The position numbers and the translations under genes were made by a program. Positions 3-5,701 of a DNA stretch of 5,702 bases are shown in pieces; position 1 is the stretch's first letter; each line of letters begins with the position of its first letter. The notes under the pieces were generated by a model that saw only the letters and a list, made by a program, of their open reading frames with translations, did not search any database and was not told the DNA's origin. Source of the stretch: an uncultured archaeon (GTDB lineage: Archaea > Asgardarchaeota > Lokiarchaeia > Sigyniarchaeales > Promethearchaeaceae); the NCBI GenBank assembly GCA_964426185.1, contig CAYRPF010000121.1:1-5702 (forward strand). The letters run 5' to 3'.

Positions 3-56
3 GAAATTCAGAAAAAATTGGAAATTGCAAAAAATTTCCTTACTAATAATATTTGA
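3..56 (+). CDS. Possible 3' end of a convergent gene entering from the left edge
   Basis: Frame +3 reads EIQKKLEIAKNFLTNNI followed by tandem TGA TGA (54-59). It looks helical and amphipathic but is too short to confirm. Confidence 0.2.
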   Translation, partial: EIQKKLEIAKNFLTNNI

Positions 57-268
57 TGAATTTTCAAGTCGAAGGATAAATTAGAAGATTTCTCATTTTT
101 CTCTCGAAAGATCTTGGTTTGGGGCTTTCGAGGACGACCTAGCATATAAATTCGAATTTTTAATGTGATAAAAACTTTGTGGAAAATATCCAAAAGAAGA
201 TTCGTATGTAGAAAGACAACTTCTTCTTCGCTTTGGCAGATGATATTCTTCAAATACATAAATTAAAT

Positions 269-342: not shown

Positions 343-2256
343 CTAATTTTCTAAAATTTTTTCAATTGCATTGCGAATTTCTTCCACCGCGGTTCTATCT
401 TCAATGGTAGAAATATCCCCAAGATCTTGCTGCTCTGCAATTGCTTTAATTATCCGTCTCATGACCTTTCCAGACCTTGTTTTTGGTAAGCGAGAAACCC
501 TTAACACATCTTTAGGCGTTGCGATAGGACCGATCCCTTCCCTTATTGTTTGGATAAGCTCTTGTTTCATCTTTTCATCCCATTCAAAGCTTTCTTTCAA
601 CACAACCAACACCAATGGAACCTGTCCCTTTACAGAATGAGCGATCCCTATTACCATGTTCTCAGCTACTGCTGGGTGTGAATTAAGCAGCTCTTCAATT
701 TCCCGAGTTCCCAATCGGTGGGCGGCCACTTTAATAACTTCATCCGCCCTTCCCAACACAAAATAATACCCATCTTCATCTTTTATTGCATAATCTCCGG
801 TATAATAAACTTCTTTACCAGGGATCTCTTTGAAATAGGTTTTAACGAAACGTTCATCATCTCCATAAACCGTCATCATAAATCCAGGAGGAGTAGGGGG
901 ATGAGCAACTAGAAATCCTTTCTCATTTGGAGGTACGATATTTCCTTTCGCATTTACTACTTCCAAATTCCACGACCAAGTTGGAAAAGTAGGAGATCCA
1001 GGTTTTATCGGAATATTATCCACTCCGACAGGGTTGCAAAGAACAGGCCAGCCAGTTTCAGTTTGCCAATAATTATCTACAATTTCGACTTTACCCAATA
1101 CTCTCTTCGCCCATTGATATGTGGGGGGATCTAACGGTTCTCCAGCAAGAAACAAATATTTTAAACAGCTGAGATCATGTTTGGTTATCCATTCTTCCGG
1201 ATACTTACGCAGCATACGAAAAGCTGTAGGTGAGCTGAAAACTACATCCGCTTTCACCTTAGCAATTGTTTCAAACCAAATTCCTGGATTCTGTTCTCCA
1301 TATTTACCATGAAGTGGAGTTCCGTCATAAACGATAGAAGTTATACCGGCAATCAAAGGTGCGTATATTGTATAAGAGTGACCTACAACCCACCCTATAT
1401 CAGAGGTGGCAAAATACACGGAATTTTCATGACATCCGTAAAGTGAAAAGATGGAATGATAAAGTGCTACCATATATCCACCAGTATCGCGTAAAGCGCC
1501 TTTTGGTCTTCCGGTAGTACCTGAAGTATAAAGAATGTAGGATGGATGATCTGAAGGTAACTGCTCACACTCTACTTCTTTAATAGGACATTTTTCTAAT
1601 TCGGTTTTCCAATCAAGATCTCGACCAGATACAGGATCATAAGATTGAATTCCGAAATTTACCACTAACACCTTAGGAACCTTATATTCTGCAATTTCTA
1701 CCGCTTCATCCACGATTTCTTTCAATGGTGTGATTTTTCCAGCGCGTTTGCTGGCATCACTACAGATAATTAATTTTGGCTTGGCATCATCAATTCTTAC
1801 TGCGATTGATTCTTTACTGAACCCCGCAAAAATAATTGAATGAATTAATCCAATGCGAGTGCAAGCCAATGCAGCTGCACATGCCTCAATTGACATCGGT
1901 AAATAAAATATCACCCGATCACCTTTTTTCAATCCTAAATGGAGTAAAAGCCCTGCAATTTGGTTAACCAGTTTGTATAATTCTTTGTAACTTACCATAA
2001 TAAGATTATCTTCCACCGGATTTACATAAATATATGCAGGGCGGTCGGCATGAGATTCAGATAGAGCCCACCTATCAACTGCATTGTAACAGATATTTGT
2101 AGTTCCGCCTTTAAACCAACGATAAAAAGGGGGGTTGGAGGCATCGAGAATTTTCTCGGGAGGTTTAAACCAGTGCAATTTTTGGCTAATTGGGGCCCAA
2201 AATTTTTCTGGGTCGGAGATGGATAGCTGATATTCTTCTTGATATGTCATAACCAA
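343..2256 (-). CDS. prpE: AMP-forming acyl-CoA synthetase, propionate--CoA ligase (PrpE)-like member of the acetyl-CoA synthetase family
   Basis: 637-aa ORF (TTG at 2256; alternative ATG at 2250). It has the ACS N-terminal segment (SISDPEKFWA...WFKPP...RWFKGGTTNICYNAVDR), the AMP-binding P-loop YILYTSGTTGRPKG, SDIGWVVGHSY, YYTGD, GRADEVIKVAAHRLGTREIE, and the C-terminal PKTRSGKVMRR with the catalytic/acylation Lys (K597, codon 466-468). LAGEPLD and DNYWQTETGWP match PrpE-type pocket motifs rather than Acs-type VGEPI/DTWWQTETG. Confidence 0.9.
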   Translation of the reverse strand: MVMTYQEEYQLSISDPEKFWAPISQKLHWFKPPEKILDASNPPFYRWFKGGTTNICYNAVDRWALSESHADRPAYIYVNPVEDNLIMVSYKELYKLVNQIAGLLLHLGLKKGDRVIFYLPMSIEACAAALACTRIGLIHSIIFAGFSKESIAVRIDDAKPKLIICSDASKRAGKITPLKEIVDEAVEIAEYKVPKVLVVNFGIQSYDPVSGRDLDWKTELEKCPIKEVECEQLPSDHPSYILYTSGTTGRPKGALRDTGGYMVALYHSIFSLYGCHENSVYFATSDIGWVVGHSYTIYAPLIAGITSIVYDGTPLHGKYGEQNPGIWFETIAKVKADVVFSSPTAFRMLRKYPEEWITKHDLSCLKYLFLAGEPLDPPTYQWAKRVLGKVEIVDNYWQTETGWPVLCNPVGVDNIPIKPGSPTFPTWSWNLEVVNAKGNIVPPNEKGFLVAHPPTPPGFMMTVYGDDERFVKTYFKEIPGKEVYYTGDYAIKDEDGYYFVLGRADEVIKVAAHRLGTREIEELLNSHPAVAENMVIGIAHSVKGQVPLVLVVLKESFEWDEKMKQELIQTIREGIGPIATPKDVLRVSRLPKTRSGKVMRRIIKAIAEQQDLGDISTIEDRTAVEEIRNAIEKILEN

Positions 2257-2441: not shown

Positions 2442-2513
2442 TATCATCTATAAATGAGAAATTTGCATCCATTTCAGATTTAGAGTCATTTTCGACCTTA
2501 TGAGACTTCGCTG
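2442..2513. repeat. 72-bp direct repeat, non-coding copy (duplicate of A2M gene 3' end)
   Basis: tatcatctataaatgagaaatttgcatccatttcagatttagagtcattttcgaccttatgagacttcgctg aligns without gaps to 3295-3366 with 6 mismatches (66/72). Confidence 0.95.
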
Positions 2514-2527
2514 TGATAGCGAGTTAA

Positions 2528-3223
2528 TTAGGCCAAATAAGCATATTTCTTACGTTTTTTGAGAATTTTGACAGCACAAACTCCAACAGTGACAATGCCT
2601 ATAAAAACCAAAGAAATCCATCTTCCGCCGCCTATGGATCTACTCGATTGAATTTGAGAAGTATCATCTGTTTCTGGAGCAATATCATAATAATTATCCG
2701 GATATTTGTATTTGGCTTCAATATCATTTTCCAAGATAAAATAATCGACGTTATCCCAGAACCAGTTATCGATTATTGAAGATGCGCCGCTGTCCTCTAT
2801 TTCTATACCGATTAAGTTCCTTATCTATGAATTAGGAAAATCAGTACCAGTATTAATGATAATGCAGTTCTTAATTTTCAAGTATGCGCTCGAATCCCGA
2901 ATGTATATGCCCGAACCAGCCCCACCCGCATCAATCTCCAGATTCTCTATCACGTACGGGTATGCAAATGTTCCACTGCCCGTCACCGCATCGCAATCAT
3001 CCCAATCGTGGGCAGGATCATTACCGTCGATAAATATGGGGGAGTGAGCGGCGGCGAAACTGGGTTCTATAACCCCCATTGTATTTGTTTTCAGCATTTT
3101 TTTAGTTTGGTTGTTAGTTGGGTTGGAATAATTTCCCATAATTCCCAAAGCACCTAATATTCCCAGCAACACTAACGCCAAAATAATTTTATTACTGGTT
3201 TTTGTCATATTAGTTCCATCCAA
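2528..3223 (-). pseudogene. Membrane-anchored right-handed parallel beta-helix (NosD/PbH1-like) surface protein interrupted by one in-frame TAG at 2825-2827 (pseudogene or amber read-through)
   Basis: ORFs 2825..3223 and 2528..2734 are in the same frame (2827-2734=93 nt). The 30 intervening codons are open (IRNLIGIEIEDSGASSIIDNWFWDNVDYFI). The joined product is about 231 aa (226 from ATG 3208, which is preceded by GGATGGA). It comprises an N-terminal signal/TM helix (KIILALVLLGILGALGIMG), an archaeal beta-helix cap (HSPIFIDGN...GSGTFAYPYVIENLEIDAGGAGSGIYIRDSSAYLKIKNCII), one PbH1-like turn after the TAG, a S/T/D linker, a C-terminal TM helix (WISLVFIGIVTVGVCAV) and a basic tail (KILKKRKK). 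Confidence 0.7.
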
Positions 3224-3283: not shown

Positions 3284-5701
3284 TTATACTTCTGTATCAT
3301 CTATAAATGAAAATTTTGCCTCCATTTCAGATTTAGAGTCATTTTCAACCTTACGAAACTTCGCTGGTAAAATCTTATTTATCATTTCCGGTTTTTTAGA
3401 AGATATGTAGGCAATTCCTGCAATTCCTAATGAAATTCCGATGATTATGCCAATAGTGGCATAAGGTGGCAAAGTGCTGAAGATCTTGAATGGATCAAAG
3501 AAATATTGAGCAATGTTTCCATAGATATCGAATACTTGGATAATGAAGGTTACTTCAGAATCAATATTTTCAAAGGTATCTACCACGATATTAAGAGTTT
3601 CATTACCGTCTTTATTATAAAAAGTCAAAGATGTCCAACTATTTCCTTGTAAATAGAACACCCTTACTTTAGATATTTCATTATCATCAGCAACATTAAA
3701 AGAGAGTTGCACTTTGGGACTATCTGCCGTCAGATCGCTTATTGAGCAATCATTGATAACTGGATTTTCGATATCTCTATAAATTTCATTATTTACTGAG
3801 TATTCCATAGGAATATTTTCTAAATTCTCTCCTCCAGTTTTTAAGGAATATCTATCATACATTCCCCAAAGTTCAATTTGTCCACCAAATGAGTTCTTTA
3901 CGTCAATTACTTGAATCTGATAGGTTATTGTTATGAAATTTCTTGGCAATTTGGCAAAATATATATGTATTTTGGACGGATTAATTTCCACCGGAAAATC
4001 TCCGCCTGAATTCGATGAAATCTGGAGAGAGTCTGGGATGTACTCTGTTCCTTCGGGAATTTCATCATCCAAGGCATAAAACTGACGATTTTGTGCATTA
4101 TTTTCGATTTGAATGGATACTGTAATAACATCTCCAGTGAAAAGCCGCCTTCTTACATCGAAAGATTTCGATAAACTTATTCCATCCTTTGATACTAATC
4201 GGGATGACCTTTCAGAATTAGAACTAAGAGGTACTATTTGAGTTCTGCTATCAGATTTCTGACTTGAGGCGGGAGTTTCACCCACTTCACAATAAATAGG
4301 ACCTATTTTTTTCTGGAAATGCTGTAATGAGGTGCTATTTTCCTTAGGATTGGTGTAAATCAAATCCCCAGATATTTTCAATAAACCTAACACATAGTTC
4401 CCACTAGTAATAGGAGCATTCAAGATAAAATTCGCTTGAGATGTTCCCAATGGAATATTTTCAAGATAAATCACTTCAGAATCAGGAGTATCCAAAGAAA
4501 AATCGGGATTTAAATCATCTAATTCCAAAGTTATATAGTTCAAAGAATACCAAGAGGGTATATCGCGAAATATCACTGAGAAATTGAATTGTGACCCTGG
4601 TGAGACCACGAGATCGCTCGGAATCTCGATTGTTGGTTCAGTACGCACAATTTGGGTAGTTTCAAACATGAAATAGTACTGACCATTTCCAGAAGAGTTT
4701 AAAGTAATGGTGTTGTTTCCTGTTTCCAGATCAGGTGAAACTAATAATTGGATTTGAGCAGGAATCCACTCATCTGTGTAGTTTAAGCGATAAACTGGAT
4801 CAGATTCATCATTCAAAGTTATATCTAATGTTCCGTTGAATTCTACGATTTCTGATGTAATGGTATGATTCTTCATAAAAATTAAAGCTTGAATTGCTGA
4901 AGATGTATCAGCCGTGGTCCACCATCCATAACGCCCTTTGTGTGAAAGTAAAAACTGGGTAGATTTTTGAAGCAATGGAAAATGTCCGAGAAAATCGTCC
5001 TCAGCTAAAGTCATAATTACATTAGCAGTTATCTCAACAATTCCCCCGAAATAACCCCAATACCAATAATTAGATGAGCTAAAGGTCCAAAATATTTCTT
5101 CATTTTGAGTTTTTTTGCTATTTAAAAGGTAATTGATTAATTCAGTGGATCTAATTGTATTTTCGAAAGTGGTATTATGAACAGCAAGATAGTACAACGC
5201 AGCTCCGTACGATCCCCTATAATCCGCTGTATCCCATTCAGTTGCTAAAAATGAAAAAGCCTTGGATAATACTGATGAGAGATCGATTGTAGTAATTTGC
5301 TGAGAAATTAACAACTTGGCTATATAAGCAGTGGCCTCAAAAGCGGTTTCACCATAATGTGAACTTAAAGACCATGAACCATCTGGGTTTTGCAAATCGA
5401 TGAAATAATCAACAGCTGATTCAAATTTATAAGGGTTTACATAAAAACCACTTCTATCAATTTCAATTAAAGCCGAGAGAACGATGGAAGTCATATAAAT
5501 GCGAGACTCGTCATCGTACCACCAACCCCACCCTCCATCGGAATGCTGCATACTATATAAGCGATTAAGACCTTCAGCTACAATCTGATTGATCTGGATT
5601 TCAATATCATCTGTGAGTTCCCCTGAAACCTTCAGATATTGATATATCAATACGCTGGGTAATAATTTAGGAACTGTTTGTTCTACACATCCATACGGAT
5701 A
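3284..5701 (-). CDS. Alpha-2-macroglobulin family thioester-containing protein (5'-truncated by window edge) with C-terminal transmembrane anchor
   Basis: The frame is open from 5701, so the TTG at 5650 is internal; the extension reads YPYGCVEQTVPKLLPSVLIYQYLK with a GCxEQ thioester motif. TED barrel motifs follow: GLNRLYSMQHSDGGWGWW, YMTSIVLSAL, DLQNPDGSW, VEITANVIMTL, FLLSHKGRYGWWTTADTSSAIQAL. A C-terminal MG/receptor-binding-like domain is present (GISLSKSF...GDVITVSIQIEN...YALDDEIPEGTEYI...WGMYD), then an Ig-like domain, a TM helix (YATIGIIIGISLGIAGIAYI, about 3404-3463) and a tail ending TAA TAA. Confidence 0.9.
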   Translation of the reverse strand, partial: YPYGCVEQTVPKLLPSVLIYQYLKVSGELTDDIEIQINQIVAEGLNRLYSMQHSDGGWGWWYDDESRIYMTSIVLSALIEIDRSGFYVNPYKFESAVDYFIDLQNPDGSWSLSSHYGETAFEATAYIAKLLISQQITTIDLSSVLSKAFSFLATEWDTADYRGSYGAALYYLAVHNTTFENTIRSTELINYLLNSKKTQNEEIFWTFSSSNYWYWGYFGGIVEITANVIMTLAEDDFLGHFPLLQKSTQFLLSHKGRYGWWTTADTSSAIQALIFMKNHTITSEIVEFNGTLDITLNDESDPVYRLNYTDEWIPAQIQLLVSPDLETGNNTITLNSSGNGQYYFMFETTQIVRTEPTIEIPSDLVVSPGSQFNFSVIFRDIPSWYSLNYITLELDDLNPDFSLDTPDSEVIYLENIPLGTSQANFILNAPITSGNYVLGLLKISGDLIYTNPKENSTSLQHFQKKIGPIYCEVGETPASSQKSDSRTQIVPLSSNSERSSRLVSKDGISLSKSFDVRRRLFTGDVITVSIQIENNAQNRQFYALDDEIPEGTEYIPDSLQISSNSGGDFPVEINPSKIHIYFAKLPRNFITITYQIQVIDVKNSFGGQIELWGMYDRYSLKTGGENLENIPMEYSVNNEIYRDIENPVINDCSISDLTADSPKVQLSFNVADDNEISKVRVFYLQGNSWTSLTFYNKDGNETLNIVVDTFENIDSEVTFIIQVFDIYGNIAQYFFDPFKIFSTLPPYATIGIIIGISLGIAGIAYISSKKPEMINKILPAKFRKVENDSKSEMEAKFSFIDDTEV
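3295..3366. repeat. 72-bp direct repeat, coding copy (encodes AKFRKVENDSKSEMEAKFSFIDD of the A2M tail)
   Basis: tatcatctataaatgaaaattttgcctccatttcagatttagagtcattttcaaccttacgaaacttcgctg, offset 853 bp from the copy at 2442-2513. Confidence 0.95.
5678..5692 (-). other. Thioester motif GCVEQ (Cys 5687-5689, Gln 5678-5680)
   Basis: Reverse complement reads GGA TGT GTA GAA CAA, in frame with the 3284 ORF and matching the CxEQ signature of A2M/complement/TEP proteins. Confidence 0.92.

Follow-up and report, generated by a model that had tools for sequence, protein, structure and literature searches.

A C-terminally tethered thioester protein of the A2M family in an Asgard archaeon

Introduction

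Thioester proteins of the A2M (alpha-2-macroglobulin) family have received much attention in animals and in a handful of Gram-negative bacteria; their archaeal counterparts have received very little. Here, we analyse a 5,702-nucleotide (nt) stretch of DNA from an uncultured Asgard archaeon, hereafter the window, whose minus strand carries the 3′ part of a gene for such a protein at 3284..5701. The window is the whole of contig C121 (CAYRPF010000121.1) of a 3.26 Mb assembly (GCA_964426185.1) that consists of 155 contigs and is 92% complete.

The bacterial A2Ms carry an N-terminal lipoprotein anchor and end at the MG10 domain, and the gene for the Escherichia coli protein YfhM is paired with pbpC. 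Proteins of the YfhM/ECAM, Salmonella (PDB: 4ziq, 4u48) and Chloroflexi/Ignavibacteria types resemble the Asgard protein in having extra N-terminal domains, MG2, the BRD/bait region and the A2M domain, followed by a CUB-TED module with the CxEQ motif and a C-terminal MG10/MG8 domain; the bacterial proteins are membrane-tethered traps. Chloroflexi, Ignavibacteria and other A2Ms are the nearest non-archaeal relatives by profile (350–550 bits with an Asgard profile), whereas the E. coli and Salmonella proteins reach just 60–72 bits. Unlike the YfhM type, the Asgard protein has no lipobox Cys, no pbpC neighbour and no transglycosylase in its genome, and to the bacterial layout it adds a beta domain before MG8 and a fibronectin type III (FN3)-like domain, a transmembrane helix and a tail after it.

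Among the animal thioester-containing proteins (TEPs), CD109 (PDB: 8s3o), A2ML1 (7q1y), A2M (6tav) and Anopheles TEP1 (2pn5) have the bait region, the thioester domain (TED) and the MG8/receptor-binding domain (RBD) fold in common with the Asgard proteins, and no solved structures score higher with the Asgard profile (186–250 bits). The Asgard proteins are ~600 residues longer, with additions at both the N- and C-termini. C-terminal tethering is known in CD109 and in Drosophila Mcr, but the CD109 anchor is glycosylphosphatidylinositol rather than the transmembrane helix and cytoplasmic tail of the Asgard proteins.

Archaeal A2M homologs, found mainly in Halobacteria and Methanomicrobia, combine Ig-like/MG domains with a TED in which CxEQ is intact, usually have a signal peptide, and have been discussed as possible immunity or conflict proteins (Makarova et al., 2021; PMC8416519). 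The window protein shares with them the archaeal host, the signal-type N-terminus, the MG domains and the TED with CxEQ. The phyletic table of that paper lists two A2M homologs for Heimdallarchaeota LC_3; its text does not discuss the Asgard members, a C-terminal membrane anchor, a tail motif or a winged-helix neighbour. A full-text literature search, with most subscription journals outside its reach, found no description of the Asgard proteins or of a C-terminal anchor.

Results

The window encodes the C-terminal part of a thioester protein with a transmembrane anchor

The frame at 3284..5701 is uninterrupted up to the contig end, where its first residues read YPYGCVEQ. The gene, of which this frame is the 3′ portion, is present once and encodes an A2M/complement-family cell-surface protein of ~2,060 residues, in the genus of Candidatus Harpocratesius. 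The N-terminal ~1,256 residues were not found in this assembly, either by tblastn with the Harpocratesius ortholog or by a Pfam search for the A2M family. The public gene call for the contig (P0124, window 3284–5242) starts at frame residue 153 and gives a 653-residue product, so the deposited annotation lacks the thioester motif. An earlier note on the window, made from its letters, had likewise found GCVEQ to be absent from the open reading frame (ORF) track.

An AlphaFold2 model of the fragment was built from a 42-sequence family alignment (mean predicted local distance difference test score, pLDDT, 80). A second model covered residues 346–745 (pLDDT 74), and structures were compared by VIA-align against ~48,000 PDB representatives. 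The features of the fragment are as follows.

3284..5701, minus strand: A2M-family thioester protein gene, C-terminal 805 codons and stop; 5′ end lost at the contig end; 803/805 identity to residues 1257–2061 of the full-length copy P0225
5678..5692, minus strand: GCVEQ thioester motif, fragment residues 4–8 (C1261 in the full-length copy)
4856..5701, minus strand: TED, an alpha/alpha toroid, residues 1–282 (PF07678; all-helical in the model, pLDDT mostly 85–95)
4667..4840, minus strand: post-TED beta strands, residues 288–345 (model strands 288–296, 304–307 and 332–340)
4277..4642, minus strand: extra beta-sandwich domain with a long hairpin, residues ~354–475 (both models; profile alignments)
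4205..4276, minus strand: disordered Ser-rich linker, residues 476–499 (pLDDT 29–35; poorly conserved)
3809..4195, minus strand: MG8/receptor-binding-type domain, equivalent to bMG10, residues ~503–631 (VIA-align; weak bMG10 match)
3482..3769, minus strand: membrane-proximal FN3-like beta-sandwich, residues ~645–740 (VIA-align; pLDDT 84–90)
3395..3466, minus strand: single transmembrane helix, residues 746–769 (hydropathy and model)
3287..3394, minus strand: cytoplasmic tail, residues 770–805, with a basic juxtamembrane stretch and then an acidic motif (tail alignment)
3290–3310, minus strand: acidic motif S-F-I-D-D-T-E, residues 798–804 (tail alignment)

Pfam places TED_complement (PF07678) at residues 2–273 with an E-value of 7e-23 (81.6 bits against a cut-off of 22), and the Foldseek matches for this domain are C3, C5, TEP1 and C4dg. 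The strands that follow, through which both bacterial and eukaryotic profile alignments extend, occupy the position expected for the returning half of a CUB domain and are a putative CUB in the model. The MG8-type domain (residues 505–631) superposes on the RBD of bovine A2M (1ayo_B; Z 13.5, rmsd 2.6, 121/130 residues) and on MG8 of C3c (Z 12.0), with CnaB-type pilin domains at similar scores. Its Pfam match to bMG10 (residues 514–598) is weak, at 24.4 bits under a cut-off of 26.2, and A2M_recep has no match in the fragment, the orthologs or P0225. Residues 645–745 resemble FN3 domains (6gvl, Z 11.6; 2ic2, Z 11.1), and Foldseek on the stalk returned generic Ig-like stalks only. Hydropathy reaches 2.15 over residues 748–766, the sole strongly hydrophobic segment of the fragment, which overlaps the model helix at 746–769; a transmembrane helix is kept at this position in 42/42 Asgard sequences and is followed here by a charged tail of 36–39 residues. 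With the whole model as query, Foldseek supported family membership at template modelling scores (TM-scores) of ~0.3, which reflect the domain arrangement and are uninformative on which relatives are closest.

The TED, the C-terminal MG-like domain, the Ig-like domain, the single transmembrane helix and the charged tail that the earlier note had listed were all seen by Pfam, AlphaFold2 or VIA-align, which confirms its observation of a membrane-anchored protein with a thioester motif. We also considered an enrichment of N-glycosylation sequons (1.21 per 100 residues against a genome median of 0.57) and rejected it, because composition alone predicts 1.13 per 100 residues and the density is thus uninformative.

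A near-identical full-length copy carries the canonical domain order

The N-terminal two thirds can be read from P0225 (MHA1776248.1, 'MG2 domain-containing protein [Promethearchaeota archaeon]'), a protein of 2,061 residues from another metagenome-assembled genome, whose residues 1257–2061 are identical to the window fragment at 803/805 positions (99.75%). It falls into one 90% cluster with the 653-residue public product. In P0225, Pfam finds the canonical order of MG2 (344–439), A2M_BRD (827–935), A2M (1052–1132) and TED (1240–1529), the first three above cut-off, together with a single CVEQ; the MG2, BRD and A2M domains are found in the orthologs too. There are exactly two hydrophobic segments, at residues 7–31 (after MVSQKKK) and 2002–2024. 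No Cys occurs within the first 60 residues and the first is residue 664, so P0225 has no lipobox. Cleavage of the N-terminal segment would make the predicted topology type I. On both counts the earlier proposal holds: the near-identical copy is a type-I-like thioester member of the A2M family, with a signal-type N-terminus and a C-terminal transmembrane anchor, rather than an N-terminal lipoprotein of the YfhM type.

The protein belongs to a conserved family with a patchy distribution in Asgard archaea

A word-indexed search of longer proteins recovered ~43 Asgard proteins of 1,940–2,080 residues that cover 90–100% of the fragment, from Harpocratesius, Lokiarchaeum ossiferum, Promethearchaeum syntrophicum, Hodarchaeota, Hermodarchaeota and Heimdallarchaeota. 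An N-terminal hydrophobic segment is present in nearly all of these orthologs and the C-terminal transmembrane helix in all; GCxEQ is likewise universal, at about residue 1,190–1,270, with its C, E and Q invariant in 42 sequences. The retention of this architecture across two Asgard branches implies selection. The linker at 476–499 has a family consensus without a majority residue at any position.

The C-terminal additions are confined to a restricted set of proteins. The main bacterial relatives stop at the MG10-type domain and have no transmembrane helix, and bacterial A2Ms give no alignment to the Asgard profile beyond the MG8-type domain. The extra beta domain (~354–475) is present in Asgard and Thermoplasmata-type proteins and missing from bacterial relatives; Asgard-profile positions ~1560–1700 are skipped by bacterial A2Ms and aligned in the Thermoplasmata-type proteins. 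A C-terminal transmembrane helix occurs in relatives from Thermoplasmata and Nanoarchaeota as well, and in two proteins that cluster with the nanoarchaeotal ones. An exhaustive HMMER scan of residues 346–805 against 1.84 billion cluster representatives gave only 99 matches, and full-module matches are limited to proteins of ~2,000 residues or fragments thereof.

Phylogenies were inferred from 120 rows and 571 columns of the A2M-CUB-TED core (LG+G4) and from 53 rows (LG+C20+F+G4); both trees are unrooted and contain no eukaryotes, and nesting of the archaeal branch within bacterial diversity is not resolvable from them. A branch with Shimodaira–Hasegawa-like approximate likelihood ratio test (SH-aLRT) values of 100 and 99 in the two trees sets the Asgard proteins apart, and among them the Loki-type group is a clade (SH-aLRT 100). 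In both trees the Thermoplasmata-type proteins are sister to the Asgard ones (SH-aLRT 94) with P0047 next, and a branch at SH-aLRT 98–99 divides all of these from the other, bacterial-side rows. Since the Asgard proteins form a clade of their own, a recent import from bacteria, the outcome that would have undone the evolutionary claim of the earlier note, is excluded. The sister proteins (~2,460–2,650 residues; P0055, P0066, P0093 and P0108) share the extra beta domain and the C-terminal transmembrane helix but are ~400–600 residues longer than the Asgard ones, have a CARDB-type domain (PF07705) on record and end in different tails.

Within Asgard archaea, matches with an E-value of 1e-10 or better were found in 31 of 301 sampled genomes, 27 of which, including this one, have one near-full-length copy. 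They are concentrated in the window's own family (4/6 genomes), one genus of a sister family (4/22) and a distant family (18/21); three large Asgard families gave no match (0/76, 0/28 and 0/19).

A protease trap is favoured over covalent tagging

We consider the protein to be, most likely, a membrane-tethered protease trap from an archaeal branch of the A2M family, an assignment from sequence that we regard as probable though well short of certain. From the sequence features, the predicted fold and topology and the family-wide conservation described above we infer thioester formation, bait cleavage, trapping and a protective role. The protein would be exported via its N-terminal signal-type segment and anchored on the outside of the membrane through the C-terminal helix, leaving the short tail in the cytoplasm. 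Its ectodomain, predicted to comprise a macroglobulin-domain array with a hypervariable bait loop, the TED with its Cys–Gln thioester and the MG8-type domain, would be lifted above the membrane by the FN3-like stalk domain. Cleavage of the bait by a foreign protease would then cause a rearrangement, the exposed thioester would react with an amine of the protease, and the cell would thereby hold the protease at its surface, caged and covalently bound, so protecting the exposed membrane proteins of the archaeon.

Variability among the orthologs peaks between the BRD and A2M domains, the canonical bait position, in an indel-rich stretch of ~40 residues (P0004 residues 1000–1040: entropy 3.07 and 2.39 against ~1.2–2.0 in the flanks, with a gap fraction of 0.25–0.33). 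The closest solved relatives by the Asgard profile include CD109, A2M and A2ML1, monomeric trapping or tethered TEPs.

The same set of domains is, however, found in tagging TEPs, and Foldseek ranks C3, C5 and TEP1 high. The activated thioester might instead join the surface protein to another cell, to a syntrophic partner, to a viral particle or to a substrate surface, in the manner of C3b or TEP1. A tether on a beta-domain stalk resembling those of adhesins and pilins would suit such covalent tagging or adhesion, as would the close contact that cultured Asgard archaea make with partner cells. In hydroxyl-reactive TEPs of the C3/C4B/TEP1 type, a catalytic His lies ~115 residues after the thioester Cys; that of TEP1 aligns beside H115 of the fragment, which would likewise suit tagging, in a gapped alignment that is uncertain in this loop. 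We rejected H115 as a conserved catalytic His: its column in the family is S, E, Y, D or Q, and no His or Asn is conserved in the family at the loop that aligns, with the same uncertainty, to the TEP1 His. Given this variation in the H115 column, the family as a whole appears not to share a C3-like acyl-imidazole route. Pfam scans of the orthologs and P0225 found neither an anaphylatoxin (ANATO) nor a C345C (NTR) domain, and together with the lack of a conserved His or Asn this makes the A2M type appear a better fit than the C3 type. Nor is there a convertase-type processing region; the hypervariable stretch falls exactly at the A2M bait position, and a membrane-tethered tagger could label only what touches the cell. 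We regard tagging as rather unlikely.

Some observations weigh against the protease-trap reading too. The bait and the N-terminal two thirds lie outside the window; our reading of them comes from orthologs and from P0225, at 99.75% identity. Beside the position of the catalytic His, in a loop whose alignment is uncertain, the window protein has H115. Nothing in characterised traps corresponds to the extra archaeal beta domain, the second disordered linker or the conserved cytoplasmic motif, and simple trapping does not account for them. Finally, the patchy occurrence among the 301 genomes argues against an indispensable protective role.

One sub-branch carries a tail motif and an upstream winged-helix gene

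The cytoplasmic tail divides the family. A long tail with the motif [ILV]-[ST]-F-[ILV]-[DE]-x-[ST]-[DE]-[DE] is present in 22/22 Loki-type sequences (SFIDDTE in the window protein) and absent from the Hod-type branch, in which the tail is short, basic and of stop-transfer type. A general sorting tag was considered as an explanation of the motif and rejected: in this genome it follows a C-terminal transmembrane-like segment in no other ORF of at least 150 residues.

The two branches also differ upstream of the gene. A gene of 170–188 codons lies just upstream in 6/6 Loki-type loci and 0/5 Hod-type loci, directly adjacent and on the same strand in four cases and with one divergent AIM24-family gene between in the other two. 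Its product (mean column identity 64%) gives weak but consistent matches to ArsR/TrmB-type helix-turn-helix (HTH) domains, all below cut-off, followed by two hydrophobic helices. Orthologs of this winged-helix protein at 275 bits or more occur in 7/301 genomes, every one of which has a Loki-type TEP. In the remaining two Loki-type genomes, this one and G222, the TEP gene is cut at a contig end, and the regulator gene was not found in the present assembly. We rejected the PolB and MFS genes found upstream in the Hod-type branch as functional partners, taking their position for housekeeping synteny.

The membrane-tethered winged-helix protein encoded upstream in the Loki-type branch probably controls the TEP gene, or else responds to it. 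That the tail motif and the winged-helix partner occur together hints at a functional link; it may also stem from a single evolutionary event, and for that reason the co-occurrence is statistically weak. One possibility that we consider quite unlikely is that the Loki-type thioester protein, its tail motif and the winged-helix protein form a transmembrane alarm, by which protease attack or ligand capture would be relayed to the DNA-binding protein. A related reading, in which the protein is chiefly a sensor of surface damage, cleavage or engagement of the ectodomain passes through the tail motif to change transcription and trapping is secondary, has in our view a slim chance of being correct. 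Both the strict restriction of the motif and the pairing with the winged-helix gene speak for such a sensor, but the HTH matches fall below the Pfam cut-off, an adjacent regulator may merely control expression, and the regulator gene lies outside this assembly. Sensing and trapping can coexist.

A wider family with the same layout of a winged helix and two transmembrane helices was seen in 180/301 Asgard genomes, frequently more than once and with up to 10 matches per genome, at 90–146 bits. This widespread membrane-tethered DNA-binding family may merit its own study; examples linked to a TEP gene are L004:5430-5987, L030:6130-6663 and L031:13177-13743. Separately, the C-termini of the Hod/Heimdall-type proteins P0026–P0046 have a conserved I-P motif and the transmembrane helix and finish with a few basic residues (RKK), a layout resembling the tripartite signals cut by archaeosortases or exosortases. 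The NCBIfam sorting-signal models gave no match to P0038, and no equivalog name model matched either.

Profile comparisons show no special kinship of the Asgard proteins with animal TEPs

The earlier note had suggested that an Asgard host would make the protein relevant to the origin of eukaryotic TEP and complement proteins. We compared the Asgard profile with a matched bacterial control profile of 42 sequences, running both against the PDB sequences.

CD109: Asgard profile 250 bits, bacterial profile 307 bits
Human A2M: Asgard profile 246 bits, bacterial profile 286 bits
TEP1: Asgard profile 186 bits, bacterial profile 240 bits
C5: Asgard profile 112 bits, bacterial profile 166 bits
C3: Asgard profile 110 bits, bacterial profile 160 bits
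E. coli YfhM: Asgard profile 72 bits, bacterial profile 288 bits
Salmonella A2M: Asgard profile 60 bits, bacterial profile 269 bits

Judged from the PDB scores of the Asgard profile alone, the animal proteins seem to have an affinity to the Asgard ones, since CD109, A2M and TEP1 score far above the E. coli and Salmonella structures. This affinity was overturned by the nearest bacterial and other archaeal A2Ms, at 350–550 bits with the same profile, and by the matched bacterial profile, which scores higher throughout (160–307 bits for the animal proteins against 110–250); the enterobacterial structures are divergent outliers. Bacterial A2Ms are thus more similar to animal TEPs than the Asgard proteins are, and by this measure of similarity the idea that animal TEPs arose from Asgard ones is unsupported. 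The domain content points the same way, with the C-terminal domain matching, weakly, the bacterial bMG10 model only and with no anaphylatoxin or C345C domain.

That the protein is a direct forerunner of eukaryotic TEP and complement proteins, inherited via the Asgard ancestor of eukaryotes, is highly improbable: the Asgard host, the ranking among solved structures and a C-terminal tether recalling CD109 and Mcr would favour it, but the profile scores and bMG10 match just described, the N-terminal extension (MG2 begins at about residue 344, aligning to about residue 110 of C3) and the patchy Asgard occurrence all oppose it, as does the distribution of TEPs among eukaryotes, where to our knowledge they are essentially limited to animals. 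The tests that we ran on these sequences showed no special kinship with animal immune proteins and, on present evidence, the Asgard thioester protein should not be cited as a root of animal complement.

Host and neighbouring DNA

The Asgard host that the earlier note had raised as a condition is borne out by the nearest locus. In a species-level genome collection this belongs to Candidatus Harpocratesius repetitus FW102, at 60% identity across all 805 residues; the same locus reappears as genome G210, placed in the same genus as the genome of the window, a genus that NCBI assigns to Promethearchaeota, the Asgard phylum. The absence of a following pbpC, also remarked upon in that note, holds more widely: none is found among the neighbours in 12 Asgard loci, and a search of the host's own genome (92% complete) with PF00912, the transglycosylase family, gave no match and no pbpC-type gene. 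The rest of the window contains two genes.

343–2256, minus strand: acetyl-CoA synthetase gene (ACAS_N, AMP-binding and AMP-binding_C)
2531–3208, minus strand: inserted small gene, 226 codons, with an in-frame TAG at 2825–2827

The acetyl-CoA synthetase gene lies downstream of the TEP gene and is syntenic with Candidatus Harpocratesius repetitus. A 72-nt direct repeat, with copies at window positions 2442–2513 and 3295–3366, is 66/72 identical at a spacing of 853 nt. Of the two, the upstream copy forms the 3′ end of the TEP gene, in frame and with the final codons that Harpocratesius also has. These codons have been lost from the downstream copy, an out-of-frame orphan. In Harpocratesius the spacer from the TEP stop to the acetyl-CoA synthetase gene is only 233 nt, and because of this we take ~850 nt, including the small gene, to be an insertion in the window that was accompanied by a duplication of the TEP gene's end. 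The small gene, probably a degraded gene for a surface protein, encodes a signal anchor at the N-terminus, a transmembrane helix at the C-terminus and the beginning of a right-handed beta-helix (a weak Pfam match to Beta_helix). Contigs C98 and C79 carry weak paralogs of it. An ORF of 83 residues at window 8–259 (minus strand), in the low-GC (31%) contig end, has no Pfam match.

Discussion

Of the interpretation first placed on this locus, three parts hold: an Asgard host, a tethered thioester protein with a type-I-like topology, and no pbpC. The significance for eukaryotic origins is not supported. The locus represents an old archaeal branch of the A2M family with a rebuilt tether, in which a C-terminal transmembrane helix on an FN3-like stalk stands in place of an N-terminal lipid anchor. 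One sub-branch further has a conserved motif on the cytoplasmic side and a membrane-bound, putatively DNA-binding partner of its own.

Because orthologs are present in the cultured Promethearchaeum syntrophicum and Lokiarchaeum ossiferum, the thioester chemistry, trapping, surface location and link to the regulator can all be tested at the bench. The thioester protein may be a component of the Asgard cell surface, about which little is known. Should the transmembrane alarm prove true, this would be a sensing innate-defence module, going beyond a passive trap, in the closest archaeal relatives of eukaryotes.

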